Shown: positions 1,529 to 55,600, counted from the first letter of the stretch. The stretch: DNA of 64,000 nucleotides from an uncultured Bdellovibrionales bacterium (GCA_964488025.1 CAZATJ010000003.1:4294-68293), one strand, 5' to 3'. Translations and numbers: made by a program. The notes: generated from the sequence alone by a model not told the origin.

Positions 1529-2884
1529 ATGGCTGGAAGTAAAACCGATCACTTGCGCGTTCCCCCACATAACCTGGAAGCCGAAGCCTCGGTCCTCGGG
1601 TCGCTTATGCTCGATAAGGACGCCATCATCAAGGTGGCTGATCTTTTGAAGGTGGGAGATTTTTATAAAAACGATCATAACTTCATCTACGAAACCATGC
1701 TCGCCCTCTACGAGGAGCGCGAACCAATCGATGTCCTTTCTTTGTCCAACAAGCTTGAAGAGAAAGGCCAACTTGAACGGGTTGGCGGATCAAGTTACTT
1801 GGCATCGCTCGTCAACACGGTACCCTCAGCCACCAACGTCGTGCATTACGCCAAGGTTGTTCAGAAAAAAACACTCCTGCGCCGCCTCATCGCCGCCGCA
1901 AGCGATATCGTCGAAATGGGCTATGATGAATCGGAGGATGTTCAGAAACTCCTCGACGAAGCGGAACAGAAAGTTTTTGCCGTTTCTCAAAAATATATCA
2001 AGCAGGACTTCGTCCCCATCAAATCCATCCTTGAGGTAGCCTTCAACCGTATCGATGAACTCCACAAGAGCGACCATGCTTTCCGTGGAGTCCAAACTTT
2101 TTATCCTGACCTCGATAATCTCTTGGCCGGCTTGCAGAAATCCGATCTGCTTATTTTAGCGGCTCGACCATCGGTCGGGAAAACCACCTTCGCTCTCGAT
2201 ATTGCTCGCCAGGTCGGCGTCCATGGCAAGGTTCCGGTCGGTATTTTTTCTCTCGAAATGGGATCGGATCAACTGGTAGATCGCATGATTGCCGCTCAAG
2301 CCGGAGTGGATTTGTGGCGCCTGCGTACCGGCAAGCTTTCCAGTGAAGGCCCGGACAATGACTTCGAAAAAATTTCCGATGCCATGGGCGTGCTGTCTGA
2401 GGCACCGATATTTATCGACGACAGCGGCTCGCTCAACATCATGGAGATGCGCACCATGGCCAGGCGTCTCCAGGCCGAACACAATCTCGGGCTCATCATC
2501 GTCGACTACCTCCAGCTCATGGAAGGACGTAGTTCCAAAGGCGACAACCGAGTACAAGAGATTTCGGAAATTTCCCGCGGATTGAAACAGCTCGCCCGCG
2601 AACTCAATATTCCCGTCATCGCCCTTTCTCAGTTGTCCCGTGCCGTCGAATCCCGCCCCGATCAGATTCCGAAGCTTTCCGACTTACGCGAATCCGGTTC
2701 TATCGAACAGGATGCTGACGTGGTCATGTTTCTCTATCGTGAAGATCGAGTGAAACCCGATACCCCGAATAAGAACATTGCTGACATTATCGTGGCCAAA
2801 CACCGTAACGGTCCGGTTGGTAAGATCTCGCTCTATTTTGAGGAAAACTCAACCACGTTCAAATCACTCGAAAAAGCCCACTAG
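1529..2884 (+). CDS. dnaB: Replicative DNA helicase DnaB
   Basis: The N-terminus reads VPPHNLEAEASVLGSLMLD. Walker A is GKT, Walker B is IIVDYLQLM, and a RecA-like C-terminus follows. The ATG at 1529 (MAGSK) is the preferred start; the ORF track begins at 1499. A TATAAT sits at 1494-1499. Confidence 0.9.
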   Translation: MAGSKTDHLRVPPHNLEAEASVLGSLMLDKDAIIKVADLLKVGDFYKNDHNFIYETMLALYEEREPIDVLSLSNKLEEKGQLERVGGSSYLASLVNTVPSATNVVHYAKVVQKKTLLRRLIAAASDIVEMGYDESEDVQKLLDEAEQKVFAVSQKYIKQDFVPIKSILEVAFNRIDELHKSDHAFRGVQTFYPDLDNLLAGLQKSDLLILAARPSVGKTTFALDIARQVGVHGKVPVGIFSLEMGSDQLVDRMIAAQAGVDLWRLRTGKLSSEGPDNDFEKISDAMGVLSEAPIFIDDSGSLNIMEMRTMARRLQAEHNLGLIIVDYLQLMEGRSSKGDNRVQEISEISRGLKQLARELNIPVIALSQLSRAVESRPDQIPKLSDLRESGSIEQDADVVMFLYREDRVKPDTPNKNIADIIVAKHRNGPVGKISLYFEENSTTFKSLEKAH

Positions 2885-2887
2885 ACT

Positions 2888-3484
2888 ATGCAGTATCCAA
2901 AAGCTTTTCAATCACTCATCGCGCACTTTTCAGCCTTGCCGTCAGTCGGACCCAAGATGGCGGAACGGATTGTTCTCTATCTGTTCAAGCAGGACGCGGA
3001 GAAGCTGCAAAGTTTTGCCGAAAGCCTGGAAGAACTTCCCCGACTGAAAAGCTGCACCCGCTGTTTCCATATCGCCGAAAGCGAGTTGTGCTACATCTGT
3101 GCCGACACGAGGCGTGACACCACGGCCCTCTGCGTGGTCGAGGAACCGCTTGATGTCATCGCTCTCGAACGGATCGGCATCTATTCCGGCTTGTACCATG
3201 TCTTAGGTGGACTGCTCGAAAGCGGGAAAAATGATAATAGCGGAAACCTGCGTATCAGTGAGCTTCTCGAGCGTGTCCGTAATGACAAAATCAAAGAGGT
3301 GATTCTCGCTACCAACCCGACCACCGAGGGCGATCTGACGGCTCTCTACCTCAAAAAGAAGCTTGAGCCTACTGGAGTCAAAATTACCCGTATTGGAAGA
3401 GGTTTGGCAACAGGCGGTGATATCGAATATGCCGACGAAATCACTCTCAGTGCTGCCTTGACAAATCGCAAGGAGCTGTTATAA
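2888..3484 (+). CDS. recR: Recombination protein RecR
   Basis: It has the C4 zinc finger CTRCFHIAESELCYIC and a Toprim domain. It is adjacent to dnaB. Confidence 0.88.
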   Translation: MQYPKAFQSLIAHFSALPSVGPKMAERIVLYLFKQDAEKLQSFAESLEELPRLKSCTRCFHIAESELCYICADTRRDTTALCVVEEPLDVIALERIGIYSGLYHVLGGLLESGKNDNSGNLRISELLERVRNDKIKEVILATNPTTEGDLTALYLKKKLEPTGVKITRIGRGLATGGDIEYADEITLSAALTNRKELL

Positions 3485-3522
3485 TAACAACATCCTCAAC
3501 ACCTCGATGAAGGGAGACGGAT

Positions 3523-3690
3523 ATGCCGGAGAAGCTCGGTATGATTCCCTACGAACCGCACATGGGGGCAGGTTTTGTTCCATACGATGCCATCGAGTGG
3601 CACATGGAGCAGCAGCAGTGGCTGGCAGCGGCTCCTGAACCTGTCAAGCAAAGTGAAGTCAAAGAAGCCCCTCCAGTTCAATCGGAGTAG
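3523..3690 (+). CDS. Candidate small protein (55 aa), unknown function
   Basis: A strong SD (AAGGGAGA) sits 7 nt upstream of the ATG. It translates as MPEKLGMIPYEPHMGAGFVPYDAIEWHMEQQQWLAAAPEPVKQSEVKEAPPVQSE. It is absent from the ORF track only because it falls under the size cutoff. Confidence 0.3.
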   Translation: MPEKLGMIPYEPHMGAGFVPYDAIEWHMEQQQWLAAAPEPVKQSEVKEAPPVQSE

Positions 3691-3751
3691 CTTCCGAACG
3701 CGAGGTTCCGAGACAATGTCCGGAACCTTTTTCATTTTCATGTAATCGAAC

Positions 3752-4198: not shown

Positions 4199-5965
4199 TT
4201 ATTCAAGAATCGCTTTGATACGCCGGACGCCAGCCGAGCTCGCCTCCTCTTTGATAATTTTGAATTTTCCAAAAGTGGCGATGTCGGCCGTGGTCTTGAC
4301 GTGTGGTCCGCCGCAGAGTTCCCGGGAATAGACTGTGCCATCGGGAGCCTGCACCTGGTAGACGGTCACTTTTTCCGGGTATTTTTCCCAAAAACTCCCC
4401 TCCACACCGGCTGCTTTGGCGGCTGACTTATCCATGATAACGGTATTGACTATCGCTTGCGCCGCTATGGCTTCGTTGACATAGTTTTCCACCCGATCAA
4501 GGATGTCACGAGACACCTTTTCCGGATAGGTGAAATCAAAGCGGGTACGCTCTTCGGTGATATTCGAACCAGCCTGATGCACATCGGGACCGAGCTCTTT
4601 GCGCAGACCCGCCAACATAAGATGCGTCGCTGTATGGTAAGCCGTCACTTTGGCACTGTGGTCAGCCAAGCCTCCCTTGAATTTTCCCGCGCTGGCGGTA
4701 CGAGAAAGGTCTTGATGTTTTTTGAACTCCTCTCGAAAGGCAACCTCATCAATCTTTACTCCTCGTTCCCCGGCCAGTTCTTGAGTCATCTCGAGTGGAA
4801 AGCCGTAGGTCGAAAAAAGATCGAAGGCATCTTTCCCGGTAAGAGTGCCGTTTTCCGTCCGACGTTCCAATTCCTTAAGTCCCTTGGCAAGCGTAGCGTG
4901 AAACTTCATTTCCTCTCTCCCCAACTCATCAAGAATCTTGTGAGCATTCTCCCTGACAGAATCGTATATGTTTTCGAATTTAGCGATATACCGTTTCGCA
5001 ATCTCGGCTATGATTGGTTGTTCATAACCCATCTTGTGAAATGCTCGGATGGCCCGACGGATCAGACGCCTCAGGATATATCCCTGATCGACATTCTTCG
5101 GAACGATACCATCGGCGATGATATGGGTGGCCGAGCGCAGATGATCAGCGATGATGCGAGCGGAACGTTCATCGTACTGTTCGACTCCAACGATAGTTTT
5201 CACCATAGCCAGCACATCAGCAAAAGCGTCGGTCTCATAGACGCTTTTCAGACCATTAAGGGTGACCGTCGTACGTTCCAGCCCCATGCCGGTATCGACG
5301 CACGGCATCGGCAGTTTTTGAAGCGTATCGGCGTCAATGCGGTTATACTGCATGAAGACGTTATTCCAAATTTCCATCCACTCCGTGGGATGAGTACCCT
5401 TGTTTCCCTGTGGTTCTCCAACCCCAACCCAATAGAAAATTTCCGTATCCGGTCCGCAGGGTCCGGTTGGTCCGGCGGCCCACCAGTTGTCTTCAGCCGG
5501 AAGATAAGCGATACGATCCTCCGGCATCCCGAGCATTCTCCAGATTTCAGCTGATTCCTCATCGCGCGGTGCATTTTTGTCACCAGCAAAAACCGTTACG
5601 GAAATCATTTCTGGTACGAGAGCCAGCCATTTCTGATCGGTAAGAAACTCCCACGACCAAGCAATTGATTCTTTCTTGAAATAATCGCCAAGCGACCAAT
5701 TCCCCAACATTTCAAAAAATGTCAGGTGCGTATCGTCACCCACCTCATCTATATCGCCAGTACGGACACACTTCTGTACATCGACGATACGTTTTCCCAT
5801 CGGATGAGGCCTCCCCAAAAGATAGGGCACGAGCGGCTGCATGCCGGCAGTATTAAAAAGCACAGAAGGATCATTTTCCGGTACGAGCGGGGCCGATGGA
5901 ATAATGACGTGTCCTTTCTTCTCGAAAAATTCCAGGTATTTTTTACGGATGTCGTTGGCGAGCAT
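4199..5965 (-). CDS. alaS: Alanyl-tRNA synthetase, short form with catalytic, tRNA-binding and editing domains and no C-terminal domain
   Basis: The class II AlaRS N-terminus reads FFEKKGHVIIPSAPLVPENDPSVLFNTAGMQ. The editing-site HxxxH is present as HTATHLM. Confidence 0.85.
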   Translation of the reverse strand: MLANDIRKKYLEFFEKKGHVIIPSAPLVPENDPSVLFNTAGMQPLVPYLLGRPHPMGKRIVDVQKCVRTGDIDEVGDDTHLTFFEMLGNWSLGDYFKKESIAWSWEFLTDQKWLALVPEMISVTVFAGDKNAPRDEESAEIWRMLGMPEDRIAYLPAEDNWWAAGPTGPCGPDTEIFYWVGVGEPQGNKGTHPTEWMEIWNNVFMQYNRIDADTLQKLPMPCVDTGMGLERTTVTLNGLKSVYETDAFADVLAMVKTIVGVEQYDERSARIIADHLRSATHIIADGIVPKNVDQGYILRRLIRRAIRAFHKMGYEQPIIAEIAKRYIAKFENIYDSVRENAHKILDELGREEMKFHATLAKGLKELERRTENGTLTGKDAFDLFSTYGFPLEMTQELAGERGVKIDEVAFREEFKKHQDLSRTASAGKFKGGLADHSAKVTAYHTATHLMLAGLRKELGPDVHQAGSNITEERTRFDFTYPEKVSRDILDRVENYVNEAIAAQAIVNTVIMDKSAAKAAGVEGSFWEKYPEKVTVYQVQAPDGTVYSRELCGGPHVKTTADIATFGKFKIIKEEASSAGVRRIKAILE

Positions 5966-6330: not shown

Positions 6331-8202
6331 CTATTCCGCGCTTCCCGGTTCCTGAAGAACAGTCACCCGATTTCTAGAAGAAGGCACGGTCGATACGAAC
6401 CATTGCGGCTTGAAAATAATCTGAAGCTTCTTGATTTCCGGAAAAGAAAGCAGGGCATCATTCACCTCATCGCCATTTTTCCCCAAAAGGCCGTCAAGAA
6501 TTTTTTCCTTGTCGATGACGGATTCAGAGTCAACAACGGCGTGCACCCTGAACCGGACTTTCTTTCCCTCATAATCGGGGATGGCTTCACCGTAAGAGAG
6601 GGTCACGGCAGTCGGTCGAAACAGGACACCGTTGACCGTTTCTTCTCCCTTGGTGCGGATTTTTTCTCTGATGGATTCTTCCGAAAAGAGAAATCCTCGA
6701 ACTTTGAAAGTATTTTTGTATTCGAAGGAAGTGGCCGTCGTACCAGAAAGCGGCAAAGTGGCGCTTCCCAGAGAAGTAACGTCGATGTTTTCTTCCAACA
6801 CCCGTTCCCCAGCAGCAAGTTCTTGTTTCACGGAAGTCAGAAATGATTCCTTTGCCTTTTCTTTCGCCAACTCATTCGCTTTTTCCAAATCATCCTTAGA
6901 GATAACTTTGGAGTCGGTTCCGGTAGTGTCGCTGCCGCCAGACAAAGACTTATTTGATTGAGCGGAAAATTTTTCGTACTTCGAACTTCCCTTGAAACCA
7001 GGAATAGTGAAAGTCGTACCAGTAATATTGTATGCCGTTCCGGATTGGTCAGCGATCACCGATGCCTCAATAGCTCCTGGCTGGCCATCGGTCATGCCTG
7101 GAACCGTCACTCCTTCAATCAGGCGGAAAATTTTCCCTTCCGGAGATTCCAGTCGGGTTGTCGCTACCAAAGATTGCGGTTCGGTGCTGAATTTGTTATA
7201 TATCACGACTGTCCCGCGAGCCTTTTGTGCAGTTCCGAGAGACTCACCAGTAGCCTCCACTGAAAAAATCACTTCTTGCTCCCTTTCCGCCATTCGCATA
7301 GGAAGCATGTCATCCTCGGCCAACACGCCCTCAAAACGCCCCTCGAACTGGAGGTCTACACTCTGAGTCGTCTTGTAGGGAACAACATGAATCTCTGCGC
7401 TCGGCAAGAAAATAAACAAGAGCACTCCGATAAGTGACAGGAAGGAAACACTTCCCAAAAACAAGAATATCCCTCTAGCTTTTTTTGAGGTGACCGCAAT
7501 TTTCGGTGTTTCTTCCTTACGTTCCGTTTTCGGAGCTCTTTCTTGAAGTGAAGAATCTTTTTTCTCCGGAGAGAAAAAATTTTTCAACCGCTCTTCTCTG
7601 CCGCCCTGAACCAGTCCGCGATCCGGACGAGATGATTCTTCTGTACGGACAGATCCCTCCCGACGTATGACGGATTGGGTTGGCACACTTTTTGGCATCA
7701 GATTGGATGTATCACGTTTGGAATTGAGACTGGTCTGTTTCGGCGGAGAGGCGTTACGTACCCTCAGTATCTTTTCCGGACCCGCCGCGACCGAAGGGAC
7801 ATCCTGAGGACTTGAAGTGTAGAAATCATTACTTCCCAGTTCTTCGGACGTGTGGTTGCTTGGCGGTGTCTCCGGCTCAACTGACGTTACCACCGCTTCC
7901 TTTTCAACTGGCGCAACGAGTTCAAGATGCGATGTTTTACGGGAAAAGTCGTCGGTATAGCGCTCAGTGGCCAGCCCCACTTTTTGAGCGAGTGTTAATC
8001 CTGTTTCATCCTGAGTGACAATAATGACTTTTTTTCCTAATTTTTCCGCTTCCCGCTGGAACAGCTTCAGATTGATAATGCTCTGCAACACCAAAGAACG
8101 CTTAGGAAAAATGAAGTAGTTCTCCCCGACAGATGAACGGCGCAGGCGACCGATTACCGAAATAATCTCTTCGTCATTTTCTATATAAAATGTCTGGGGC
8201 AT
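6331..8202 (-). CDS. Hypothetical bitopic membrane protein with a cytoplasmic N-domain, an S/T/P/E-rich linker, one TM segment and a ~350-aa extracytoplasmic domain
   Basis: It has a single hydrophobic segment, IFLFLGSVSFLSLIGVLLFIFL, and a low-complexity linker. It lies immediately downstream of ftsA on the same strand. Confidence 0.5.
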   Translation of the reverse strand: MPQTFYIENDEEIISVIGRLRRSSVGENYFIFPKRSLVLQSIINLKLFQREAEKLGKKVIIVTQDETGLTLAQKVGLATERYTDDFSRKTSHLELVAPVEKEAVVTSVEPETPPSNHTSEELGSNDFYTSSPQDVPSVAAGPEKILRVRNASPPKQTSLNSKRDTSNLMPKSVPTQSVIRREGSVRTEESSRPDRGLVQGGREERLKNFFSPEKKDSSLQERAPKTERKEETPKIAVTSKKARGIFLFLGSVSFLSLIGVLLFIFLPSAEIHVVPYKTTQSVDLQFEGRFEGVLAEDDMLPMRMAEREQEVIFSVEATGESLGTAQKARGTVVIYNKFSTEPQSLVATTRLESPEGKIFRLIEGVTVPGMTDGQPGAIEASVIADQSGTAYNITGTTFTIPGFKGSSKYEKFSAQSNKSLSGGSDTTGTDSKVISKDDLEKANELAKEKAKESFLTSVKQELAAGERVLEENIDVTSLGSATLPLSGTTATSFEYKNTFKVRGFLFSEESIREKIRTKGEETVNGVLFRPTAVTLSYGEAIPDYEGKKVRFRVHAVVDSESVIDKEKILDGLLGKNGDEVNDALLSFPEIKKLQIIFKPQWFVSTVPSSRNRVTVLQEPGSAE

Positions 8203-8250
8203 AGGGTGGTATTACCAAGTGAAGTGGGCGAATAAAATCGGGAATACTGG

Positions 8251-25510: not shown

Positions 25511-25972
25511 TTAAATAATTTTAAGTTCTTTCAACCACTCATACCAAACCGGCTCAAGCCCAGGCGATTTCTCCCAATCATCGTGGCTGATATCTCCACG
25601 AACATACTCCTCAGTTTTGACTGCGAGTAGTAATAAATCATCTTTTTTACAAAAAATCGCCTGCTTTGTTTCGTCATTACTTCTTTTTACCTCGCCAAAG
25701 ACTTCAATCTGATAGATTTTCCAATAGTGCCAACTTCCACCTTCGCGCCTACAAATGTTTTCTTTTCGTCCCTCAGTTAAAAGTTTTATATTCTGTGCCT
25801 CCAGTCCGACCTCCTCCTCTAACTCTCTTTTTGCTGATTCTTCAAAAGAATTATCTCCATCAATATGGCCAGCTGGTGGCGCAAAACCAAATGGCGGTTT
25901 TTTCCTTTCTATAAGCAATAAACTACCCTCTCTCCAAACTAACATTCCTACACTGGTATGATCACATTTCAT
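25511..25972 (-). CDS. NUDIX hydrolase
   Basis: The Nudix box is GHIDGDNSFEESAKRELEEEVGL. Confidence 0.8.
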   Translation of the reverse strand: MKCDHTSVGMLVWREGSLLLIERKKPPFGFAPPAGHIDGDNSFEESAKRELEEEVGLEAQNIKLLTEGRKENICRREGGSWHYWKIYQIEVFGEVKRSNDETKQAIFCKKDDLLLLAVKTEEYVRGDISHDDWEKSPGLEPVWYEWLKELKII

Positions 25973-25990
25973 AAGGAGACTTGATAATTT

Positions 25991-26087
25991 TGTGGACTAC
26001 CTCCTACTCAATTGGAACTCTATCATAGCAGAACTGCGGGATTGGCAGGAATTGGGGATGGCTATAGAACAGGCTCGGGCAGGGTAG
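25991..26087. repeat. Repeat R2 (~95 bp), copy 2 of 2
   Basis: It is an imperfect direct repeat of R1. It lies immediately 3' of the minus-strand gene 26110-26916. Confidence 0.7.
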
Positions 26088-26109
26088 CTTTCCTACTTCC
26101 TCTACCATT

Positions 26110-26916
26110 TCAAACTCCTTTTTCATCATCAGTTTTTAGGTCCTCCTTAGCCTCCTCAACATAGTCTGCCAATTTCTTTTTCCATTTCTGTCTTGCTAAA
26201 TCATACTGAGATGGTAGATAACTTTGGTTGCTATCTTTCCTTTGTTCCGGTCGATCTAAATACACACGACGATTCTGAGTATCAAGATAGATATCGGTAT
26301 CCCCTTTCAATATTCTTGTGTTCGGTCCGGCGAGCACTACGGGTTCGAATCCTAAAACTTTTTGACAAATTTCACTGAGAAGTTTAACGGATTCCTTATA
26401 CTTTTTAAACCAAATATCTTGGCCACCAAAAATGACTGCATCGATAGAATTGTCAGCAGAAAGCTCTTTGAGTTCATTTATTCGTTTAGATAAATCTCTC
26501 CGGAACCGATCTTGATATTTACCAGAAATGGCTTTAGGATCTTGATGGCTTAAAAAAGAGATTTGTTTCTCTGTATCTCTCTGTGTTCCCACTAATATTA
26601 CACCCGTACAGTCAATGTAGTTCTGCGAAAATTTATCTTTATCATCACAACCTGAAATGATATAGGTCTTTTTATCTGGACTCACCATTGTGTCTCTGGA
26701 GCTTTCTGGAAGCCAAAAGAAATCTACGTTCTCCCCTCGATTCATGATACGCAGCATTGCTTCTGTGGATTGACTATCTCTATCGTAAGAATCAACAATA
26801 GAAGCCATAATAGGTCGAACACCCTCGGCAAGATGTTCATTGTGGAGAGGGTTTATTTCTTTTGCTTTTTCTCCTTCTGGTTTCTTTTTCCCTGCTTCAG
26901 AAAAGACTTCAAACAT
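26110..26916 (-). CDS. Hypothetical protein (268 aa), no recognisable family
   Basis: It is a long ORF that fills the interval. No motifs were recognised. Confidence 0.4.
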   Translation of the reverse strand: MFEVFSEAGKKKPEGEKAKEINPLHNEHLAEGVRPIMASIVDSYDRDSQSTEAMLRIMNRGENVDFFWLPESSRDTMVSPDKKTYIISGCDDKDKFSQNYIDCTGVILVGTQRDTEKQISFLSHQDPKAISGKYQDRFRRDLSKRINELKELSADNSIDAVIFGGQDIWFKKYKESVKLLSEICQKVLGFEPVVLAGPNTRILKGDTDIYLDTQNRRVYLDRPEQRKDSNQSYLPSQYDLARQKWKKKLADYVEEAKEDLKTDDEKGV

Positions 26917-26940
26917 AATAAATTTGATATATTACTTTTG

Positions 26941-26972
26941 TGGACCTGGGGAGAATCGAACTCCCGACTCAG
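26941..26972 (-). pseudogene. tRNA 3'-half-like fragment (T-arm plus acceptor 3' strand)
   Basis: The minus strand reads CTGAGTC-GGGAG-TTCGATT-CTCCC-CAGGTCC-A. It is complementary to the 5' half at 27105-27138. Confidence 0.5.
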
Positions 26973-27002
26973 TCCCGCACCTTTGGATCTTTATAAAATT
27001 TG

Positions 27003-27073
27003 TGGACTTACCGGGAATCGAACCCGGAACTCAGCAATGCGAATGCTGCGTGATACCATTTTACTATAAGCCC
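27003..27073 (-). tRNA. tRNA-Ala (anticodon CGC), 71 nt, CCA not encoded
   Basis: Folded by hand. The acceptor GGGCTTA/TAAGTCC includes a G3:U70 pair. The anticodon stem is CAGCA/TGCTG with loop TTCGCAT. The T-arm is CCGGG-TTCGATT-CCCGG. Confidence 0.8.
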
Positions 27074-27104
27074 AAATACAGACCGAAGATTCAAAGGTGC
27101 GGGA

Positions 27105-27138
27105 CGAATGCTGCGTAATACCACTTTACTACAGGCCC
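27105..27138 (-). pseudogene. tRNA 5'-half-like fragment (acceptor 5' strand, D-arm and anticodon 5' stem)
   Basis: The minus strand reads GGGCCTG-TA-GTAA-AGTGGTA-TTAC-G-CAGCA-TTCG. It pairs with the 3' fragment at 26941-26972, including a G3:U70 pair. Confidence 0.5.
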
Positions 27139-27146
27139 TCAAAAAA

Positions 27147-28136
27147 TCACTTCTCGCGATAGGAGGTTCTCAACTTCATTTCCCTTTCAAACCGCTCCAT
27201 AGAAAGCTCGATGAGTCTGGTGAGAAGTTCCGCATAAGAAAGTCCGCTCGCCTCCCACAGCTTGGGGTACATGCTGATAGTGGTGAATCCTGGCAGGGTA
27301 TTGATCTCATTGACGAGAATCTCTCCGTTTTCCTTCAGGAAAAAATCAACTCGACCCAGACCCTCACAAGAGAGAACTCGGAATGTCTGACGGGCGATTT
27401 CTCGTATCCGTTCTGCCGTTTCTTCAGGGAGTCTGGCTGGTATTTCAATATCCGCACCATCCTGGTCAAGATATTTGGCCTCGTAGGAGTAAAAGCCTTT
27501 TTTCGGCACCACTTCACCGAGAATAGAGGCTTGCGGATTCTCGTTTCCAAGAACAGCACACTCTATTTCCCGCCCGATGATACCTTCCTCCACCAGAACC
27601 TTTGTATCATACAAAAAGGCATCTTTCAAGGATTTTTCATACTCTTCGGCATTCTCCACCCGGTGTACGCCCACCGACGAACCAGCATTAGCTGGTTTCA
27701 CGAAGCACGGGATGCTGATATTTCTCACAATCTCATCGAAACCCGGCACGGACTTCTTGGTCACCGTCAAAAATTTCGCCACCGGTATTCCGGCATCCCG
27801 AAGCAGACGCTTCATGACGTCTTTATCCATCCCGACAGCCGACCCAAGCACCCCCGCTCCGACAAACGGAATACCGGCCAGTTTGAGCACCCCCTGCACG
27901 GTGCCATCTTCGCCGAAACCGCCATGCAGTACCGGAAAGACGATATCCACCGCCTGACGTAATTCCACTATGCTTTTCTCCGTCAAAAACCCTTCCCCCT
28001 CTTTATCGAGAGGAAGAAGTACGGATTCAAATTTCTCTGGATCCAGGTTGGCGATGACGTTCTTTGCGGACTCAAGCGATACCTCATGTTCGGTCGATTT
28101 TCCGCCAAAAAGGATTCCCACTCTCAGCTTTTTCAT
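27147..28136 (-). CDS. ddl: D-alanine--D-alanine ligase
   Basis: The ATP-grasp N-terminus reads MKKLRVGILFGGKSTEHEVSLESAKNV. Confidence 0.88.
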   Translation of the reverse strand: MKKLRVGILFGGKSTEHEVSLESAKNVIANLDPEKFESVLLPLDKEGEGFLTEKSIVELRQAVDIVFPVLHGGFGEDGTVQGVLKLAGIPFVGAGVLGSAVGMDKDVMKRLLRDAGIPVAKFLTVTKKSVPGFDEIVRNISIPCFVKPANAGSSVGVHRVENAEEYEKSLKDAFLYDTKVLVEEGIIGREIECAVLGNENPQASILGEVVPKKGFYSYEAKYLDQDGADIEIPARLPEETAERIREIARQTFRVLSCEGLGRVDFFLKENGEILVNEINTLPGFTTISMYPKLWEASGLSYAELLTRLIELSMERFEREMKLRTSYREK

Positions 28137-28155
28137 AGACGTAATCAGTTACGTA

Positions 28156-28623
28156 CTACAACTCATGCATCTCCTCGACATGGTTTTCTAACACCGAGTC
28201 ACCATCGCCAAACAAAAACTTCGTCCGAAATTTCTTACCGACCAAAAAAACTGGCAGCCAGTGGATATCATCTGGCCACATCTCATCATAGGGAATGGCA
28301 TCGGTCGTGAACCACTGCGGTCGCATTTCTTCGGTTTCGCTCGGTTCGCCCGTCCAGGTATCCACCCGAAAAACATGCACCTCTAAAACCTCCTCTGGCC
28401 TGGATTGAAAAACAAACTCATGGATACCAACTTTTTCCATTTCCATGATCTCGACACCACATTCCTCCTGCATCTCTCGCTTGGCCGCTTCTTCAATCGT
28501 TTCTCCAGCTTCCACTTTCCCGCCAAATCCATTCCACCGTCCCGCTCCGAAGCCTCGCTTTTTCATACCAAGCAGAATCTTCCCTTCATTCAAAACCAAG
28601 CAGAGTGTCAGTATTTTTCTCAT
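28156..28623 (-). CDS. NUDIX hydrolase
   Basis: The Nudix box is GGKVEAGETIEEAAKREMQEECGVE. Confidence 0.8.
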   Translation of the reverse strand: MRKILTLCLVLNEGKILLGMKKRGFGAGRWNGFGGKVEAGETIEEAAKREMQEECGVEIMEMEKVGIHEFVFQSRPEEVLEVHVFRVDTWTGEPSETEEMRPQWFTTDAIPYDEMWPDDIHWLPVFLVGKKFRTKFLFGDGDSVLENHVEEMHEL

Positions 28624-28858
28624 ATTTTATAGCGCATACAAGCCTTTTTTAACTGATCCTATTGTACCATAGAATAACTTCGTGCTATATTGGTGATACG
28701 GGGCTGGGGGATTCTGAGAGGACGCTGGTATTCGCTTGAATACCACAATTACACAACAACGTTCTGTAACCTTTCTCCTCCTCCCCTTCTCCCTTTTTGC
28801 GCAATGCGCACCCACACTGGCCTTTGGTTCCCACCAAGGCCTTTTACATTTTTTCGAC

Positions 28859-30046
28859 CTATTTTTGTTTCGCCAGTAACTCTTCGACCTTGTCTCTCAA
28901 ACCAAAAGTGCCCGTAATGAAGTTCTTACCCCGGAGACCGAGCTGAACTTCCCGAATCCGTCGAATGAGCTCTTCTCGAGGAAATACCTCTTGAGTACCT
29001 TGAATATCCGGGGCATTCTGAAGTGCCGAGCAGAGCTCATCAAAAGATTGCGCGAGCGATATCTTGAGTTTGACGGCATCGAATGAATCCGGAGTTTTTT
29101 CTTGCCTCGCCGGCTGCTGTGCCCCGCGTCCGAAGAGTCTCTGAGCGATTGAACCGAATCGCCCCTTCACTCCGCGGCTGGATAGTTTTTTATAGATCGA
29201 ACCCGACAGATCTTCTTCTATCTGGCGATATCCATGCTCATAGTGCTTCTCCCAGTCAGCCACAACAGCAACCTCACCAGTGGCGCTCCATTTGTATCCT
29301 TTGTCAATCCGGGTATTCCTGGTGATGAGATGCCGCTCTTTCTGACTCTCAAGAAAGGCCTTACCTTTCATCTCTGTTATCCCCGTATAATGGCCTTTAA
29401 GGTACGAGGGGGCATCGGCCCGATTAAATACATCATACGGCCAGAGTTTCCGATCCGACCAAGTGTCTCCCATTTTGCCAGTATTGCACATTTTCCCATT
29501 CACCGAGCCCCCTGTGCCATCGGTAATAAGTTCTCCGGCAAGGTGTCGCGCAGCATCCAGCACAAATTTCCGCTCTCTCCCTGCTTTTGAATCTTGCGTC
29601 GAAACAGCAGCCCAAGCATGGCCGAATCTCTCGTTATTCTTGTAAGCAATATTGGAGCCGAATTGGACCCGCGTTCCTTGAGGAAAGATTCCCGTATCAA
29701 TCAATTTTTCAATGATGAGCGACGCGAGCAGTGCCTGCTGTCGACACACTCCCTTACCACCACTCTTATGGAGATAATTAGTAAGCGCAGCCTTATTTGT
29801 ATCCACCCGACCATCTAAGGCGTCCTCATTCAAAGAGCCTTTTTCATAGTCATCAACCCAATTCAAATCGTAGGGCATTGCCGTTTTGACAGCCTCAAAA
29901 ACCTCATCAATGAGCAACTCAACCGACGGACGACGGTCAATCTCCAGACTATTAATATACTGCTTCAGCTCGACGAACGAGACTGGTTTCTTTCGCTCAG
30001 ACTGATTTTCTTTGGTTGCCTGTACTGGAGGATCATTCTCATACAT
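28859..30046 (-). CDS. Transglutaminase-like (papain-fold) cysteine peptidase domain protein
   Basis: It has a Cys in GKGVCRQQALLASLII, a His about 42 aa later in GHAWAAV and an Asp about 18 aa after that in FVLDAARH. This is the canonical Cys-His-Asp spacing of transglutaminase-like cores. There is no signal peptide. Confidence 0.55.
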   Translation of the reverse strand: MYENDPPVQATKENQSERKKPVSFVELKQYINSLEIDRRPSVELLIDEVFEAVKTAMPYDLNWVDDYEKGSLNEDALDGRVDTNKAALTNYLHKSGGKGVCRQQALLASLIIEKLIDTGIFPQGTRVQFGSNIAYKNNERFGHAWAAVSTQDSKAGRERKFVLDAARHLAGELITDGTGGSVNGKMCNTGKMGDTWSDRKLWPYDVFNRADAPSYLKGHYTGITEMKGKAFLESQKERHLITRNTRIDKGYKWSATGEVAVVADWEKHYEHGYRQIEEDLSGSIYKKLSSRGVKGRFGSIAQRLFGRGAQQPARQEKTPDSFDAVKLKISLAQSFDELCSALQNAPDIQGTQEVFPREELIRRIREVQLGLRGKNFITGTFGLRDKVEELLAKQK

Positions 30047-30107
30047 AGCCCAAATTATTAAAGTTGATTGATGAGTTTCGCAAAAGAGAGAAGTTTCTGG
30101 AGCATAG

Positions 30108-30380
30108 CTATTCTATTGAAATAATCTGGATACCCAGCCTGTCCACCTCTTCTTTTGAATTAAAGGTGTAAATATCTTCCAGCTTGAAACGACTAACTTC
30201 GGTCACCTGTTTCACAATTTCCCTTCCGGTATACTCTTTCTTTTCTTTATCCCATTCACGTAAAACGAGGGTATCGCCCTCGGCCACCTCAAAATCATTG
30301 AGGCGGAGCTCGTACTTTTTCTTACCAGAGACCACCTGATCAAAATACTCTGACCACAATTTTTTCTCAATCCGCGCCAT
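30108..30380 (-). CDS. DUF3850 / ASCH-like (PUA-fold) domain protein
   Basis: It reads KKYELRLNDFEVAEGDTLVLREWD...YTGREI. This matches the DUF3850 pattern K.HELKI.P.YF..V..G.K.FE.R.ND..F.VGD.L.L.EWD...YTGR. Confidence 0.6.
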   Translation of the reverse strand: MARIEKKLWSEYFDQVVSGKKKYELRLNDFEVAEGDTLVLREWDKEKKEYTGREIVKQVTEVSRFKLEDIYTFNSKEEVDRLGIQIISIE

Positions 30381-30382
30381 AG

Positions 30383-30856
30383 TTATATCTTTACCCCGAA
30401 CTTTTCAATCATCTTCAACTGATCTTTGAATGCTGAGTGGAGAGGCTTGGGTAATTTTGTCAAAGGAAACCAGGAAAGCTCTTCCATTTTTTCCGGTTCA
30501 CCGATATGCACTTTTTTCGGATTCACTTGCGCCACAAAGAGAAAGGCCACCCAGTGCGTCTCCGTATCACCGTTCATTCGAAGCACGTTACGCACCCCGC
30601 AAAACTGCAATTTCTTCGGCTTCACACAGTATTCCTCTTCTATTTCACGAACTACCGTCTGTTCTGGTGTCTCACCAAATTCCATCGATCCTGACCCAGT
30701 ATCCCACCGACCAATCTCATCACGGCAATTTTTACTGCGCTTGTGCATAAGCAAATTCCCCTGCCCATCATGACAAAAAAATACACAGGTCACCCCGATA
30801 AAATCCACACCTTTCTTCAGATCGAACGTTTTTTTCATACCTATGCTCCATGGCAC
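30383..30856 (-). CDS. NUDIX hydrolase
   Basis: The Nudix box is GSGSMEFGETPEQTVVREIEEEYCV. Confidence 0.78.
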   Translation of the reverse strand: MPWSIGMKKTFDLKKGVDFIGVTCVFFCHDGQGNLLMHKRSKNCRDEIGRWDTGSGSMEFGETPEQTVVREIEEEYCVKPKKLQFCGVRNVLRMNGDTETHWVAFLFVAQVNPKKVHIGEPEKMEELSWFPLTKLPKPLHSAFKDQLKMIEKFGVKI

Positions 30857-49403: not shown

Positions 49404-49473
49404 AAAAAATAGACCCATTACTGTTAACGAGCCATAGTACATTATTTCTTTCGTTTTGTCAACCCCGCACCTT

Positions 49474-49725
49474 TTAGTCTTGAATGACTCGTTTTTTTAG
49501 CTCTGATAAGCCTTTCCCATGATTTTTTAGTTTCGCTTCCCTGTTTTTTGCCAGTGCTAAAGAGGAATAAGCCTCGTAGTACACGAGTTCCCAAGGCATA
49601 TATTTTTTGGTATGAAATGATTTTCCCTCATTATGCTGAGAGAGTCTCTTCCTTAAATCATTTGTATGACCAATATAAAACTGACTAAGTTCCTTCGTAC
49701 TTCGAAGCAAATAAAGATAATACAT
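49474..49725 (-). CDS. GIY-YIG nuclease domain protein (small, YhbQ-like)
   Basis: It reads MYYLYLLRSTKELSQFYIGHTNDLRKRLSQHN. The start is chosen at MYYLY; the ORF-track N-terminus overlaps the neighbouring gene. Confidence 0.6.
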   Translation of the reverse strand: MYYLYLLRSTKELSQFYIGHTNDLRKRLSQHNEGKSFHTKKYMPWELVYYEAYSSLALAKNREAKLKNHGKGLSELKKRVIQD

Positions 49726-49744
49726 AAGACTAAAAGGTGCGGGG

Positions 49745-50977
49745 TCAAACCCTTTTTCTATTTTGTATGAGGGAGGAATAAAGACCGAGAAGTTCCTTGA
49801 GGTACCTATTCTGATCAAGATCCAAAACACTTTTTCGAGCATTTTCTTGAAGTTCCGGAAGAGAAGTATTTTCCAAAGCGCGAATTTTCTCCGCCAAATC
49901 ATGGGCATCACCGGGGATAAAAAGAAAACCATTATAGCCGTCCCGTATCCGTTCCGGTAGGCTTCCGATTCGAGCGGCGATAACTGGCGTTCCGGAGGCG
50001 AGGGTTTCGAGAAGCGCATACGGAGTATTCTCGTACCACTCCGATGGCACCACTACGGCTCGCGCCTGCGCCAAAAGCTTCTGCAGATTGTCACCATATA
50101 TCGGACCAAGAAACTTCACCTTATCCTCAAGTTGTAATTCTTTTGCCAACGTTCGCAATCGCTCTTCTTCCGGGCCGAAGCCGACGATCGAGAGCGTCTC
50201 ATCATTATGGAGTTCGGTAAAAGAACGAATCAGGGTGGCGATTCCCTTTTCATAAGAAAGACGGCCGAAATACAAAAAATTCTTACCGGTTTTTTCCAGA
50301 ACCGGCAGCGAAAGATCAGGTAGTGGAAAAAGTGGTTGTGGCAAAAGTCGGATGGAATAGGAAAAGCCCAGCCGCCTATAGGTATCGATGAGAAACTGAC
50401 TGAGACCGATATAGACGTTTACCTTGCCATAAGTGCCCAAAGCTGCGTGCAGCCACTGTTCCAAAACACAAACGAGACTCTTCCCGAAAGAATCCTTGAC
50501 ACAGCGATCAATAAGACAGCGTAAGCCTGAGGAATGCTCCCAAACCTTCCCCCGAACAAACAAATTGTAGTTTGGTGAAATGAGCTTATAATCGCAGAGC
50601 GTCATCACCATCGGAACGTCATGTTTCTTGAGCGCCCAGATAATCGATGGCGAAAGCTGATGATAGGTGACAAAAAGGTGTGCCACGTCGGGCTTAAATT
50701 CCGCGATGAGCGCTTCCAATTTTTGCTTGGCAGTGAAGTTCCAGATGATATTTTGCGCCACTTTCAGTTTTTGCCACAGTGTCAGGTGAGTCGCTGCTTC
50801 ATAATCTACTTGCTCGACAAAATATTTGCTCCACTCGGTGGGTTCATTTTTGGGATGATGCATCGAAAAAAAGGCCACCTCGTGACCCTGCTCGCGCAAG
50901 AGCTTAGCCGTATCGAAATAAAGGCGCTGCGGACCGGCATATTGACGATGAAACTTGTCGATGAGGAGAATGCGCAT
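49745..50977 (-). CDS. Glycosyltransferase family 4
   Basis: It starts MRILLIDKF..AGPQRL, and the C-terminal EX7E reads ENTPYALLETLASG. Confidence 0.8.
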   Translation of the reverse strand: MRILLIDKFHRQYAGPQRLYFDTAKLLREQGHEVAFFSMHHPKNEPTEWSKYFVEQVDYEAATHLTLWQKLKVAQNIIWNFTAKQKLEALIAEFKPDVAHLFVTYHQLSPSIIWALKKHDVPMVMTLCDYKLISPNYNLFVRGKVWEHSSGLRCLIDRCVKDSFGKSLVCVLEQWLHAALGTYGKVNVYIGLSQFLIDTYRRLGFSYSIRLLPQPLFPLPDLSLPVLEKTGKNFLYFGRLSYEKGIATLIRSFTELHNDETLSIVGFGPEEERLRTLAKELQLEDKVKFLGPIYGDNLQKLLAQARAVVVPSEWYENTPYALLETLASGTPVIAARIGSLPERIRDGYNGFLFIPGDAHDLAEKIRALENTSLPELQENARKSVLDLDQNRYLKELLGLYSSLIQNRKRV

Positions 50978-51717: not shown

Positions 51718-53103
51718 ATGAACCACCAAACGACCCTCAATCCGCTTCACGAGCCCATCCTTTGGGTTTTCTTGATTGCCGTGACCGCCTTCACTGCCGT
51801 TGCCAGCTTTCTTCTTCACCTTTCTCTTTTTCTTCCACTTCTTCTCGTCGGTGGTATTCTCGCCCTCATTCTCCTCTTTCGGGATCCGATACTCCTCCTC
51901 TTCGGACTCATCATCGTGCGCATGTCGCTTGATTATTCATCACAGTATTTCAGCATCACCCTGTATGACATCACTCTCTCTCTTTCCCAATTTTTGGGTG
52001 TCGGCATCGCCCTGCTTGGTCTTATGCTTCTCATTCTGAAACGGAAACAATTGGCTACCTTTCCTCTTATCATCCCCTTCCTTATCATCTTCCTCTGGGG
52101 CAGCATGACCCTGTTTTATTCCCTCTCCACAAAAGCAACCCTCCAGGAACTGCTCCGAGTCTTCGACCTGTTCGCTCTCGGCTTTCTCGCCTATGTCACT
52201 ATACGAACCACCAAAGACTTCAGACATCTGCTCCAAACCTTCTTCATAGCCAGCGTTCTGCCGGTCGCCTTCGGTCTCTATCAGTTCGTATCCCATATCG
52301 GACTCCAGGATGAAAATGTTTCCGTACTCCGCATCTTTGGCACTTTCAGTCATCCTAACGTCTACAGCCTCTTTCTTTTTTCCGTGATCGTCTTCGGATT
52401 TCTCTATCTGATACTTTTTGGAGAAAGCGGCACGAAACGCCTGATGGTACTAATCATTCTCGGCGCACTCTCCGCCATGCTCGTTCTCACTTTCGCCCGA
52501 GTAGCCTGGATCGCGTTGTTTCTTTTCATCTTCCTGGTGGCACTCTTCCGCTATCGCCTCCTCCTCTTCCCACTCATCCTCTTTCCCTTCGTCCTCTTCG
52601 TTTTCTCGACAAACTTTCAGGAACGCGTTCATGAAAGCTTCCGCTCCGATCCGGACAGCTCCCTGGTCTGGCGACAGACGCTCTGGCAAGATGTCACCCG
52701 CTATTCCATCCAGGAAGGACGCCTTCCCTTCGGATCCGGCATGGATACCTTTCCCAAAGTCTCCGAGAGTCTCCGTGGCACGAATCATGGCCCCAACGAT
52801 CCACATAATGATTTCGTGAAATTCTTCGTCGAGGGCGGAGTGGTCGGAATCACTGCCTTCATTCTCTACCTCTTTTCCCTGGGCTATCTCCTCATTCAGA
52901 AATACCGTGAAAGTCAAAAAGGGAGCGCGCTCAAAATCGCTTTCGGTATCATGTTCATCTTCTTTCTCACTCTCGAACTCTCCGCCCTGACCGATAACAT
53001 CTTCAAAAACACGCCGGTCCAGTGGCTCTTCTTCACCGCCTTCGGCGCTCTCCTAGCGCTTTCGGAAACAAAGCAAAAATTTTCCGAAAAAATCACTTCT
53101 TGA
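51718..53103 (+). CDS. O-antigen ligase / Wzy-like polymerase family membrane protein
   Basis: It has more than 10 TM helices. The periplasmic loop reads NHGPNDPHNDFVKFFVEGGVVG (Wzy_C-like). Confidence 0.65.
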   Translation: MNHQTTLNPLHEPILWVFLIAVTAFTAVASFLLHLSLFLPLLLVGGILALILLFRDPILLLFGLIIVRMSLDYSSQYFSITLYDITLSLSQFLGVGIALLGLMLLILKRKQLATFPLIIPFLIIFLWGSMTLFYSLSTKATLQELLRVFDLFALGFLAYVTIRTTKDFRHLLQTFFIASVLPVAFGLYQFVSHIGLQDENVSVLRIFGTFSHPNVYSLFLFSVIVFGFLYLILFGESGTKRLMVLIILGALSAMLVLTFARVAWIALFLFIFLVALFRYRLLLFPLILFPFVLFVFSTNFQERVHESFRSDPDSSLVWRQTLWQDVTRYSIQEGRLPFGSGMDTFPKVSESLRGTNHGPNDPHNDFVKFFVEGGVVGITAFILYLFSLGYLLIQKYRESQKGSALKIAFGIMFIFFLTLELSALTDNIFKNTPVQWLFFTAFGALLALSETKQKFSEKITS

Positions 53104-53205
53104 GTAAAAAAAGAAGGGCTCCGAAACGTTGCTTACGCATTATTTCGAAACCCTTGTGCTGGAACCGCGTCACGCTGGACGCGAGTCCCTGCCGGCCTGG
53201 CCGAC

Positions 53206-53814
53206 TTACTTCTTGGTGGCGAGCGCCGTACGCGTCGCCTGGTCGAGCTTGACCACCGTCGAGCCGTCGAAGCACCAGCCCGTCATGGGACTGCCATTGA
53301 CGTTCTTGGTGGACCACGCCGCCGGATGTCCAGACCAGACGCGCTGGCCGTCCGGCAAGACGCCGACCCAGGTCACGACGCGGCAGCGCTCTTCGCCCTT
53401 CTGGAAGGTCATCGTCACCGCGCCGTCAGCGAGCTTGCCGCTCGCCTTGGCCTTGTCGACCGTGATGGCCATGAGCTCTTCGCTCATTTCGCCCCAGTCA
53501 CGACCGAGGCCCATGGCGTAGATGGTCGTGCCGGCGGGCAACGTGTACAGACTGACTTGCTTCTTCGTCGGCGCATCTTGCGCCTTCTTCATGGGCTTCA
53601 TGCCCTTCAAGTCGGTGAACGAGACGCCGATGACGCCGGTCAGGGTGACGGTGTAGGCATTGTCCTTGACAGCGGATGCCGTCAAGCCGATGCCACCGCC
53701 GCCAGCCGGGTCGTACCCTGCAACACCGGACAGCGGGTCCGCGGCCATGACGGCTGCGGAGACGGAGATGATCGCCAGAGCGATCAGGCTTTTGGGAACG
53801 AACTTCGTCTTCAT
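53206..53814 (-). CDS. Secreted hypothetical protein (high-GC segment)
   Basis: The signal peptide is MKTKFVPKSLIALAIISVSAAVMA. GC is about 60-65%. Confidence 0.5.
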   Translation of the reverse strand: MKTKFVPKSLIALAIISVSAAVMAADPLSGVAGYDPAGGGGIGLTASAVKDNAYTVTLTGVIGVSFTDLKGMKPMKKAQDAPTKKQVSLYTLPAGTTIYAMGLGRDWGEMSEELMAITVDKAKASGKLADGAVTMTFQKGEERCRVVTWVGVLPDGQRVWSGHPAAWSTKNVNGSPMTGWCFDGSTVVKLDQATRTALATKK

Positions 53815-54036
53815 ATCGTGCTCCTTCGCACAGTGGTTGGGTGATGAGATGTGCCTGACACATCGACCCAACCGAGGTTGGATGTTCAGGCACATTTCAA
53901 ACCTTGTCGGTCGGTATCTCTTGCAAGACACCATCTGGACTCATCACTATACACCCATTTCCATTTTCTGTCAAGATGTCACTTTTTGCTCTATAAAGCC
54001 AATATTTCCTCTATCTTGCATCTGAAAATATGGCTG

Positions 54037-54822
54037 TTAGTGCCAGTAGGCCTTGGGCACTCGAATGGTCAAAAACCGACCACCCGTATCTCCGAACCAG
54101 TCAGACATCCAGGCCTCGCAGTTGTTGGCCGGGTTGTCGCTTCGGTTCTTCCGGCTCTCTGGGTTCTGGCACTCCGGATCGAAACCCGTATAGCCGTCAC
54201 CCATACCCCGCCACCAGTCGAGACCGATCTGCAGCCTGGCCGCTCCGGAGATCCTGACCTCCATTTCGACCAGGTAGCGCGCTCCCGGCTTGTTATCCAA
54301 CCGTGGATCGCTCCAGTTGTGAAAAAGCCGCCGGGCAATTTTTCCGGGGTCGACGTTATACGCCGCCTCTTCATAATCGTAGACCAGCTCGCTCTCACCG
54401 GTACCGTCCGTCTCGCCGAACCACTGTTCGACGTCCCGACCATTTCTGGTAAGTGTCCTCGGAAAGATGCCACCACTCCCGACGCCGTCCGTCCCCTTGC
54501 CGTCAAAGGTGATGGTCTGCACCAGCTTCGGAGCAGACGTGCCCACCTGCTCGTAGACCTTCCACGAACGGATAGAGACCTTGGATTCTCCTACAGCACA
54601 GGACAAGGCATTTGCCACGGTGATGTGACTGATGACCGTATGGAAATACGGTGGCGGCGTTGCTCTGCCTGGATGATGGTGCTCTCCCTTCCAGATGGCG
54701 CCTTGCGGAACCAGAGGCAAAGTGTTCACCAATGTCCCTGGCGGACAGACCTGCGTCACGGGGTTGGCCCACAGTGACGCAGTGCACAAGAGCCAAGCTA
54801 TGGCTATCAACAACCTTGTCAT
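54037..54822 (-). CDS. Secreted hypothetical protein (high-GC segment)
   Basis: The signal peptide is MTRLLIAIAWLLCTASLWA. The start is chosen at that Met. Confidence 0.5.
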   Translation of the reverse strand: MTRLLIAIAWLLCTASLWANPVTQVCPPGTLVNTLPLVPQGAIWKGEHHHPGRATPPPYFHTVISHITVANALSCAVGESKVSIRSWKVYEQVGTSAPKLVQTITFDGKGTDGVGSGGIFPRTLTRNGRDVEQWFGETDGTGESELVYDYEEAAYNVDPGKIARRLFHNWSDPRLDNKPGARYLVEMEVRISGAARLQIGLDWWRGMGDGYTGFDPECQNPESRKNRSDNPANNCEAWMSDWFGDTGGRFLTIRVPKAYWH

Positions 54823-54847
54823 TGTGAACCTCCTTCTGCGGTTGAGA

Positions 54848-55306: not shown

Positions 55307-55436
55307 GTGAAACTCCTGTTGGTAAGGGGCTGGGAATCATTTCGTCCGCACGTCGCGAACCGTACAGTATAGCAAAAAATAGGTATTTTGTCAAGCCGAG
55401 TAAACACATTTCTGCTCTTAAAAAATCGTGTAAAAA

Positions 55437-55476
55437 AGATCAAGGGCAGGTCGTTCGGATGAACTTCCTGCCCTGT
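55437..55476 (-). terminator. Rho-independent terminator after the LysM gene
   Basis: On the minus strand, gggcagg...cctgccc is followed by ttgatcttttttacacgatttttt. Confidence 0.5.
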
Positions 55477-55600
55477 GATTGCGAATGATGTCGCTGACTT
55501 CCTTCTCTCTTTGAACCGGTACGTCACCGCGTGCTCCTGTATTGCTACAGTGCATGTTGGCGCATACCCTTTTTATAGTCTCATAAGAGAGCGTGTTCAG

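Follow-up and report, generated by a model that had tools for sequence, protein, structure and literature searches.

An intact tRNA-Ala gene between inverted repeats inside a second tRNA-Ala gene suggests disruption of tRNA genes by a small element

Insertions other than introns occur in the rRNA genes of CPR bacteria; they occupy the tops of stem-loops, and a GIY-YIG protein is encoded by some of them (PMC11270868). Like the IVS of bacterial 23S rRNA, they replace the top of a stem-loop, have inverted-repeat ends that form a long stem of a kind suitable for RNase III, are neither group I nor group II introns and occur sporadically, in a lineage-specific manner. REP/REPIN-RAYT systems consist of a dispersed hairpin-forming repeat and a vertically inherited, single-copy HUH Y1 (IS200/IS605-like) gene that is flanked by inverted copies of the repeat. 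Fragments of tRNA genes that derive from integration (the classes of Williams 2002; PMC9897764; the Caldiarchaeum tRNA-Thr, PMC3293823) are partial copies beside a complete one, with the anticodon loop as target and with function preserved by the tRNA sequence of the new element. The split tRNAs of Nanoarchaeum equitans and Caldivirga have their break in the anticodon region and, beyond it, a complementary, GC-rich helix of at least 12-14 nt. Amplification of tRNA segments with a tandem product is driven by the phage GIY-YIG protein SegB (PMC13096335). Group I introns are common in Patescibacteria tRNAs and are known in the anticodon loop; nested tRNAs are not described there (PMC13011429), nor did we find nested tRNA cassettes described in the literature on nested, split or fragmentary tRNA genes.

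A locus resembling each of these systems in part was analyzed in a stretch of DNA of 64 kb, the whole of which is called the window here. On its minus strand, at 26941-27138, a complete tRNA-Ala(CGC) separates the 5' part of a second tRNA-Ala from its 3' part. In function, IVS and CPR rRNA insertions come closest to the locus; the features listed above for them are all shared by it, and its repeat ends form a stem of 20-23 bp. Excision of an IVS by RNase III, with no ligation, leaves a fragmented host RNA that still works. Unlike the IVS, its host is a tRNA whose anticodon is destroyed and whose fragments are useless, and it nests recursively; because such fragments cannot work, the insertion carries a full replacement gene. 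Partial copies beside a complete one, the anticodon-loop target and the preserved function are held in common with integration-derived fragments. An integrase island, however, has complete and partial copies at opposite ends, an integrase and a conservative crossover, whereas here the complete copy is internal, the insert of ~134 bp has no integrase, the junctions are non-conservative and the repeats are inverted rather than direct. Classical tRNA-targeted integration thus explains the displaced fragments but not why the complete copy is internal, why the ends are inverted and why the joints are non-conservative. As in REP/REPIN-RAYT systems, inverted copies of a short, dispersed, hairpin-forming repeat flank a single-copy nuclease gene; in contrast to them, the nuclease is a GIY-YIG (SLX1/UPF0213-like) protein and not an HUH Y1 transposase, the copy number appears low, one cargo is a tRNA, and mobility is something that we infer. 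With the archaeal split tRNAs the locus shares the break in the anticodon region and the helix beyond it, but it has no bulge-helix-bulge, part of the tRNA is missing, the halves lie adjacent around a complete tRNA, the arrangement is not conserved in relatives, and the host is a bacterium with no known splicing endonuclease. As with SegB, duplication of a segment holding a full tRNA gene goes along with a GIY-YIG nuclease (PMC13096335); SegB is a larger phage homing endonuclease, whereas the protein in the window is an 82-aa chromosomal one, linked to the tRNA by a shared repeat only, and the product is nested. The insert has terminal inverted repeats like those of a MITE or TIR transposon, but the tRNA site has no target-site duplication and has lost 5 nt instead.

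The features of the nest and of a second cassette that is bounded by the same repeat are listed in Table 1.

Table 1. Features of the nested tRNA-Ala locus and of the GIY-YIG cassette, in window positions
Feature	Position	Strand	Remarks
ddl (D-alanine--D-alanine ligase)	27147..28136	-	directly upstream of the nest; synteny anchor for orthologous loci
Outer (resident) tRNA-Ala(CGC), 5' part, nt 1-33	27106..27138	-	GGGCCTG acceptor strand, intact D arm, 5' anticodon-stem strand
Left inverted-repeat arm	27086..27105	-	GTCCCGCACCTTTGAATCTT; belongs to the window's 18-nt repeat family
Inner intact tRNA-Ala(CGC), 71 nt	27003..27073	-	ARAGORN (27002/3-27073); Rfam RF00005, 60.9 bits, full length
Right inverted-repeat arm	26972..26991	-	AAGATCCAAAGGTGCGGGAC
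Outer tRNA-Ala, 3' part, nt 42-73	26941..26971	-	variable loop, T arm GGGAG/CTCCC, CAGGTCC, A73
Second repeat-bounded cassette	49455..49750	-	arms 49461-49481 and 49723-49743 (CCCGCACCTTTTAGTCTT), 21-nt inverted repeat
82-aa GIY-YIG nuclease ORF	49722..49477	-	Pfam GIY-YIG, 2.5e-15

The original prediction had described an intact tRNA-Ala(CGC) inside a second tRNA-Ala, and every element was recovered at its position, the inner tRNA being called by both ARAGORN and Rfam. The inner gene is the working tRNA; it has G3:U70 and A73 and does not encode CCA. The outer 5' part (GGGCCTGTAGTAAAGTGGTATTACGCAGCATTC(G), 27138-27105, minus strand) begins 8 nt past the ddl stop, exactly where an uninterrupted tRNA starts in the closest relative, and G35 at 27105 can be assigned either to the outer tRNA or to the repeat. 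It forms a direct repeat (D2, 88% identity) with the inner 5' half and matched tRNA-Ala 5' halves in BLAST. The outer 3' part ((C)TGAGTCGGGAGTTCGATTCTCCCCAGGTCCA, 26972-26941) is likewise a direct repeat of the inner copy (D1, 72% identity), and its BLAST match to the 3' half of the closest relative was 96%. Inner and outer acceptor stems are both perfectly paired and both contain G3:U70, so the complementarity predicted for the outer strands, GGGCCTG/CAGGTCC, was borne out. The same was true of the perfect 14-bp inverted repeat, GTCCCGCACCTTTG at 27105-27092 and its exact complement CAAAGGTGCGGGAC at 26985-26972, which extends over the arms of Table 1 to 20 nt with one mismatch (95% complementarity). 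This pair cannot be put down to chance: the window has no other perfect inverted repeat of at least 14 nt within 150 nt, and 30 shuffles produced none. Short spacers separate the inner tRNA from each arm. The insert measures 134 bp, with the left junction within TTCG (nt 32-35) and the right junction at nt 41. As far as the DNA is concerned, the alternative description of the locus, in which the anticodon region of a tRNA holds a large insertion, is correct. Nucleotides 36-40 (CATTG) are absent from the outer gene, and only 3 bp (CAG/CUG) of its anticodon stem are left. The outer gene was thus not merely divided into two halves. The same 198 nt were found letter for letter in three independent ENA assemblies (L007, L008 and L009), and the nest is thus not an assembly artifact.

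In our reading the locus is probably a resident tRNA-Ala(CGC) broken by a repeat-bounded cassette that carried a replacement tRNA, with the outer halves as relics and the repeat as a clamp or processing stem. Related loci were compared. L001, whose Ddl is 85% identical, is the closest relative; there the tRNA-Ala(CGC) at this place after ddl is uninterrupted and its acceptor stem is the same, and L006 also has a plain, uninterrupted tRNA-Ala(CGC). Most other relatives have orphan tRNA-Ala 5' halves only, one to three of them being stacked at each of L002/L003/L030, L012, L018, L025/L034, L027 and L037. The stacked halves end at nt 33 (in one class at nt 31) and are followed by a conserved flank and then by a new tRNA. 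The flank is TT(C/T)ACCCCG(C/T)ACC or CGCGCCCYGTTAGAC, and the junction motif conserved in the Patescibacteria stacks is CCC(C)GYACC. At L002/L003/L030, relatives at 76%, the first element after ddl is a tRNA-Ala 5' part broken after nt 31 and followed by CGCGCCCCGTTAGAC; the second layer is a 5' half broken after nt 33, then TTTACCCCGTACCAAAA and an intact tRNA-Ala(CGC). The right arm is decayed there and the 3' half is absent. At L012, L018, L037 (Moraniibacteriota), L025/L034 (Doudnabacteria) and L027, which has two stacked 5' halves, the half ends at U33 and is followed by TT(C/T)ACCCCG(C/T)ACC, an 8-20-nt spacer and the next tRNA. L022 repeats the window in its two-sided layout, its left arm (TCCCGCACCTTT) and its right junction; it has two 3' halves, and in both the tRNA sequence starts again at nt 41. 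Its outer acceptor stem differs in sequence and is perfectly paired with G3:U70, and its outer T and D stems have one mismatch each. Both outer halves were kept only in the window and at L022, and the right-hand junction is represented by three examples. Where the 3' half is missing, the right side may have been resolved by homologous recombination between the 3' halves of cargo and resident.

When the tRNA-Ala variants were distinguished by their D arms and labelled A to D, each flank was found to keep to its own partner. Flank type 1 (ACCCCGYACC...) always precedes a type-D tRNA with the junction at nt 33, and flank type 2 (CGCGCCCYGTTAGAC) always precedes a type-B tRNA with the junction at nt 31. 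The order of nesting is A / flank2-B / flank1-D at L002 and A / flank1-D / flank2-B' at L012. Two cassette types nested in opposite orders argue for recurrent insertion and against one inherited old structure. Fixed junctions together with a swapped order are predicted by site-directed insertion of discrete cassettes, but not by random tandem decay or by an ancient nest. Breaks were also found outside tRNA-Ala. At L265 a break at ...TGTCG in a tRNA-Ser(CGA) leads into TCCCGCACCAAAA and a new tRNA-Ser; at L025 the 5' part of a broken tRNA-Gly comes before ...CACCCCGCACCTT and an intact tRNA-Gly. Judged from these comparisons, the junction motif is independent of tRNA identity, since it occurs at tRNA-Ala and tRNA-Ser breaks and adjoins the broken tRNA-Gly. 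Pattern scans of contigs from metagenomes and from species-representative genomes yielded true loci in 5/16 and 3/15 cases, respectively, and the remainder were chance matches.

Several further arrangements were seen at these loci. On the minus strand of L025, at ~1886-2110, the tRNA-Gly(GCC) 5' part, a hairpin and CACCCCGCACCTT lie ~100 nt upstream of the intact tRNA-Gly, and an orphan right-arm motif, AAAAAGGTGCGGGGTG, follows tRNA-Arg(CCU) at ~4700-4790. At L022 (2850-3040) an intact tRNA-Arg(CCU) is nested in a second tRNA-Arg that is broken in the D loop and has a decayed outer T arm; a different, GC-rich and imperfect inverted repeat (..CGCCTGAC / GTCAGGCG..) lies on both sides of this nest. 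The outermost tRNA-Ala layer of L018 (reverse complement, ~7930-8240) is reduced to nt 1-9 plus nt 57-73 and joined to the insert via another inverted repeat (CCTGCCCGC / GCGGGCAGG). At L002 a 16-nt hairpin lies within the D loop of the outermost fragment.

The arms of the nest belong to a repeat family. The 18-nt repeat CCCGCACCTTTnAnTCTT has four copies in the window (at most one mismatch) against 0.01 expected, and these form two inverted pairs. In other Patescibacteria the core motif of the repeat stands at the junctions of broken tRNA-Ala and tRNA-Ser genes and beside a broken tRNA-Gly. The second pair bounds the GIY-YIG cassette (Table 1), whose ORF has its ATG directly beside one arm and its TAA stop within the other. 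The nearest solved structures were SLX1 and UPF0213, as weak matches (E = 7e-4 to 1e-2). The cassette arms are predicted to form a 23-bp closing stem (z = -5.6). Orthologues with 73-75% identity have kept both the repeat and the synteny glycosyltransferase-GIY-YIG-epimerase, and their repeat shows one compensatory change of T:A to C:G (AGTCTT/AAGACT to AGCCTT/AAGGCT); a homologue with 53% identity is without the repeat. In three genomes the gene keeps its syntenic position, so it has not itself moved recently. TTGA is found on both sides of the cassette and can be read as a target duplication or as an extension of the helix. No GIY-YIG homologues were found near the nests in the other related loci examined. 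The nest suggests disruption of a tRNA gene by a small element, and the GIY-YIG link through the repeat family is promising but unproven; if true, it would connect a repeat family with a small GIY-YIG nuclease in genomes whose rRNA genes are already known to contain odd insertions. The downstream arm of the cassette was also seen to run into the TTGACA-17-TAnnAT promoter of the next gene.

The repeat arms share 6 bp with the acceptor stem of the tRNA-Lys of the window. The arms were also considered as the acceptor strands of another tRNA (GCGGGAC/GTCCCGC-ACCA), and this was rejected because no such stem was present in any tRNA of the loci examined. As a separate observation at 62466-62644 (minus strand), tRNA-Lys(UUU) (62644-62568) is followed by 83 nt rich in hairpins, then by 19 nt (GATTCCCCCCGCACCCACC, 62484-62466) that exactly repeat its T-loop-to-3' end, and then by a terminator, and its 3' end contains the repeat core CCCCGCACC.

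The resident tRNA-Ala was opened in its anticodon loop, and the 134-bp insert contains a complete replacement tRNA-Ala(CGC); the same is seen at fixed positions in several lineages and for at least two tRNA identities. For the course of events the following can be proposed. Cassettes would be captured repeatedly at double-strand breaks in the anticodon loops of cognate tRNA genes. The left joint would fall within TTCG/TCG, which is common to CGN anticodon loops and the repeat end, and the right joint at YNGA. Joints at such short shared sequences suggest microhomology-mediated joining, which would account for the 5-nt loss and for the missing target duplication. Each arriving cassette would disable the previous copy, and Russian-doll stacks of tRNA fragments would result. 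Hypothetically, the GIY-YIG protein could be the breaking or mobilizing enzyme. Ala-CGC and Ser-CGA are C34 isoacceptors, which U34 tRNAs cover by wobble, so their transient loss would presumably be tolerable. Tentatively, and with considerably less confidence than in the disruption of the single gene, the nests can be placed in a Patescibacteria class of hairpin-bounded cassettes, REPIN/RAYT-like with an SLX1-like GIY-YIG, that serially replace C34 isoacceptor genes (Ala-CGC, Ser-CGA). Elements of this kind would be captured at the tops of tRNA stem-loops and would escape counter-selection by carrying a full copy of the tRNA they destroy. If true, this would be a compact route by which a selfish or semi-domesticated element enters an RNA gene without a ribozyme, by means of a spare gene copy. 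It would also account for the orphan tRNA halves that confuse annotation at Patescibacteria tRNA loci.

The role of the repeat was considered at the RNA level, where all statements are thermodynamic predictions. Folding of 26941-27138, which had been suggested with the original prediction, gave a nested structure for the 198-nt RNA (-79.4 kcal/mol, z = -6.5). The predicted probability of the inner acceptor stem was 0.95 and that of the outer acceptor stem 0.99. When both arms were shuffled, the value for the inner stem dropped to 0.05-0.88; a plausible role of the repeat is thus to hold the relic halves to each other and to shield the working pre-tRNA. In the transcript, a helix of ~23 bp would pair the relic halves; the inner pre-tRNA would fold freely, and RNase P and RNase Z would mature it. 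RNase III classically acts on helices of 20-23 bp, and the repeat helix is plausible as a site for it. A repeat arm as promoter of the inner tRNA was ruled out, as no -10 element was present at a workable spacing and a consensus scan gave nothing relevant.

The ORFs flanking the nest include no recombinase or integrase gene, and the cassette was not encountered in free or un-nested form. Scans of IMG/VR with arm and junction patterns returned only chance matches in coding DNA or terminators, and a phage attP or viral origin was rejected on these grounds. These results bear on the best surviving alternative, in which the arms are attL and attR of a larger element integrated by a classical integrase and afterwards reduced to its tRNA. 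Integration into tRNA genes is common, the arms joined in a circle would form a palindromic att-like site, and the tRNA-Lys of the window has a displaced T-loop-to-3'-end fragment; displaced 5' fragments beside a recombinase-bearing insert are documented in archaea (PMC3293823; PMC9897764). We nevertheless regard such a footprint as rather unlikely, because the event was non-conservative, with 5 nt lost and no overlap common to both junctions, the complete copy is internal and not terminal, the spacers are at most 20 nt in all eight lineages, and neither an integrase in the flanking ORFs nor a phage attP was found.

A LAGLIDADG endonuclease was rejected as driver, as one was found near tRNA-Ala nests only at L027 and none in the region of the window. 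The family concerned, LAGLIDADG_3 (~330 aa), is widespread in CPR (304 matches). In all five contexts read (L027, reverse complement 2553-3697; L265, 1464-2691; L266/L267; L268/L270) the gene is preceded by a type-II tRNA 5' fragment (acceptor strand plus D arm) and followed by a complete tRNA-Ser(CGA). This suggests a homing-endonuclease gene that inserted in the D loop and either carried a full tRNA along or retained one.

No decoding tRNA can come from the outer halves, which we take for a relic of recent date, although their intact stems could reflect selection rather than recent insertion. As an alternative, the halves and the helix would form a non-decoding, two-piece tRNA-like RNA, arising when the inner tRNA is cut out by RNase P and RNase Z and charged by AlaRS via G3:U70 for a non-ribosomal role, perhaps, in view of ddl, the synthesis of cell-wall peptides. 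All retained outer stems are perfect in the window, the outer acceptor stem is predicted with near certainty (see above), G3:U70 and A73 are found both there and at L022 despite different acceptor sequences, and the locus adjoins ddl. Yet most lineages with a retained 5' half lack its 3' counterpart, the locus of the closest relative contains a normal tRNA, the outer T and D stems of L022 are mismatched, and the adjacency to ddl is not conserved at L037, L022 and L025. We give this possibility little credence.

A decayed tandem array of three tRNA-Ala copies, with an inverted repeat that is fortuitous or was selected later, would explain why inner and outer halves are paralogous (88% and 72% identity) and why relatives have stacks of fragments. 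It had been named in the original prediction, as a decaying tandem pair, as the plainer alternative. The repeat, however, is unique in the window at its stringency and yet a conserved member of a repeat family, independent events share their fixed break positions, and each flank stays with its own tRNA variant. Tandem decay is therefore very improbable.

Even less can be said for a functional split or intervened tRNA, in which the helix would unite the halves and the insert would be excised, leaving a ligated or non-covalent second tRNA-Ala. The complementary acceptor strands with G3:U70, the intact D and T arms, the strong helix and the same two-sided layout at L022 are all consistent with it, and the original prediction had drawn the comparison with the split or permuted tRNAs of Nanoarchaeum and their leader/trailer helix. 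In intron mode ARAGORN called the inner tRNA alone and not the outer halves. Three different direct joins of the halves gave no tRNA, whereas a join with CATTG restored by hand was called as tRNA-Ala(CGC). A bulge-helix-bulge (3-nt bulges 4 bp apart) was absent from the exon junctions by folding and by inspection: the junction fold is a continuous helix with one 1-nt bulge, which is not this motif, and the alternative pairing has a 6-nt bulge on a single strand. For group I introns, Rfam gave no match even with the threshold relaxed to E <= 1, neither for the window nor for seven related loci; a relic of such an intron was rejected on this ground and because the insert is 134 nt as against at least 184 nt and the exons are incomplete. 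With nt 36-40 missing, a 7-nt anticodon loop cannot be rebuilt. Since there is in addition no bulge-helix-bulge and no group I signal, the outer gene cannot give a decoding tRNA via any known excision. We know of no tRNA splicing endonuclease pathway in bacteria. Comparison of the homologous locus, also suggested at the outset, went against a split tRNA as well, with the gene uninterrupted at L001 and L006 and the outer 3' half lost from most other relatives, and we regard this reading as extremely unlikely. Disruption of the resident gene, if true, would represent a bacterial DNA-level path to split-looking tRNA genes and would bear on the debate about the origin of archaeal split tRNAs. tRNA finders call the inner gene only, and such genomes need fragment-aware annotation.

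An invertible DNA switch, in which an invertase flips the tRNA and likewise the GIY-YIG gene, is hardly credible: 20-nt inverted repeats do flank both cargos, but there is no invertase gene, a single orientation occurs in the three assemblies and all orthologues, and the compensatory change is equally compatible with a paired stem.

The best matches of Ddl were to Candidatus Moranbacteria/Moraniibacteriota and other Patescibacteria, and the neighborhood contains several NUDIX genes, ASCH and small ORFs. By gene content and protein similarity the host fits an ultrasmall CPR/Patescibacteria bacterium. Neighboring ORFs of 268, 395 and 153 aa had no Pfam match. Elsewhere in the window, a GC-rich block at 52001-58000 (0.55-0.58, against ~0.47 in the rest of the window) gave no detection of rRNA or other Rfam families. 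NUDIX hydrolase genes are unusually numerous around ddl and the tRNA locus, with at least three in 5 kb (25511-30856), and this arrangement is kept in relatives.
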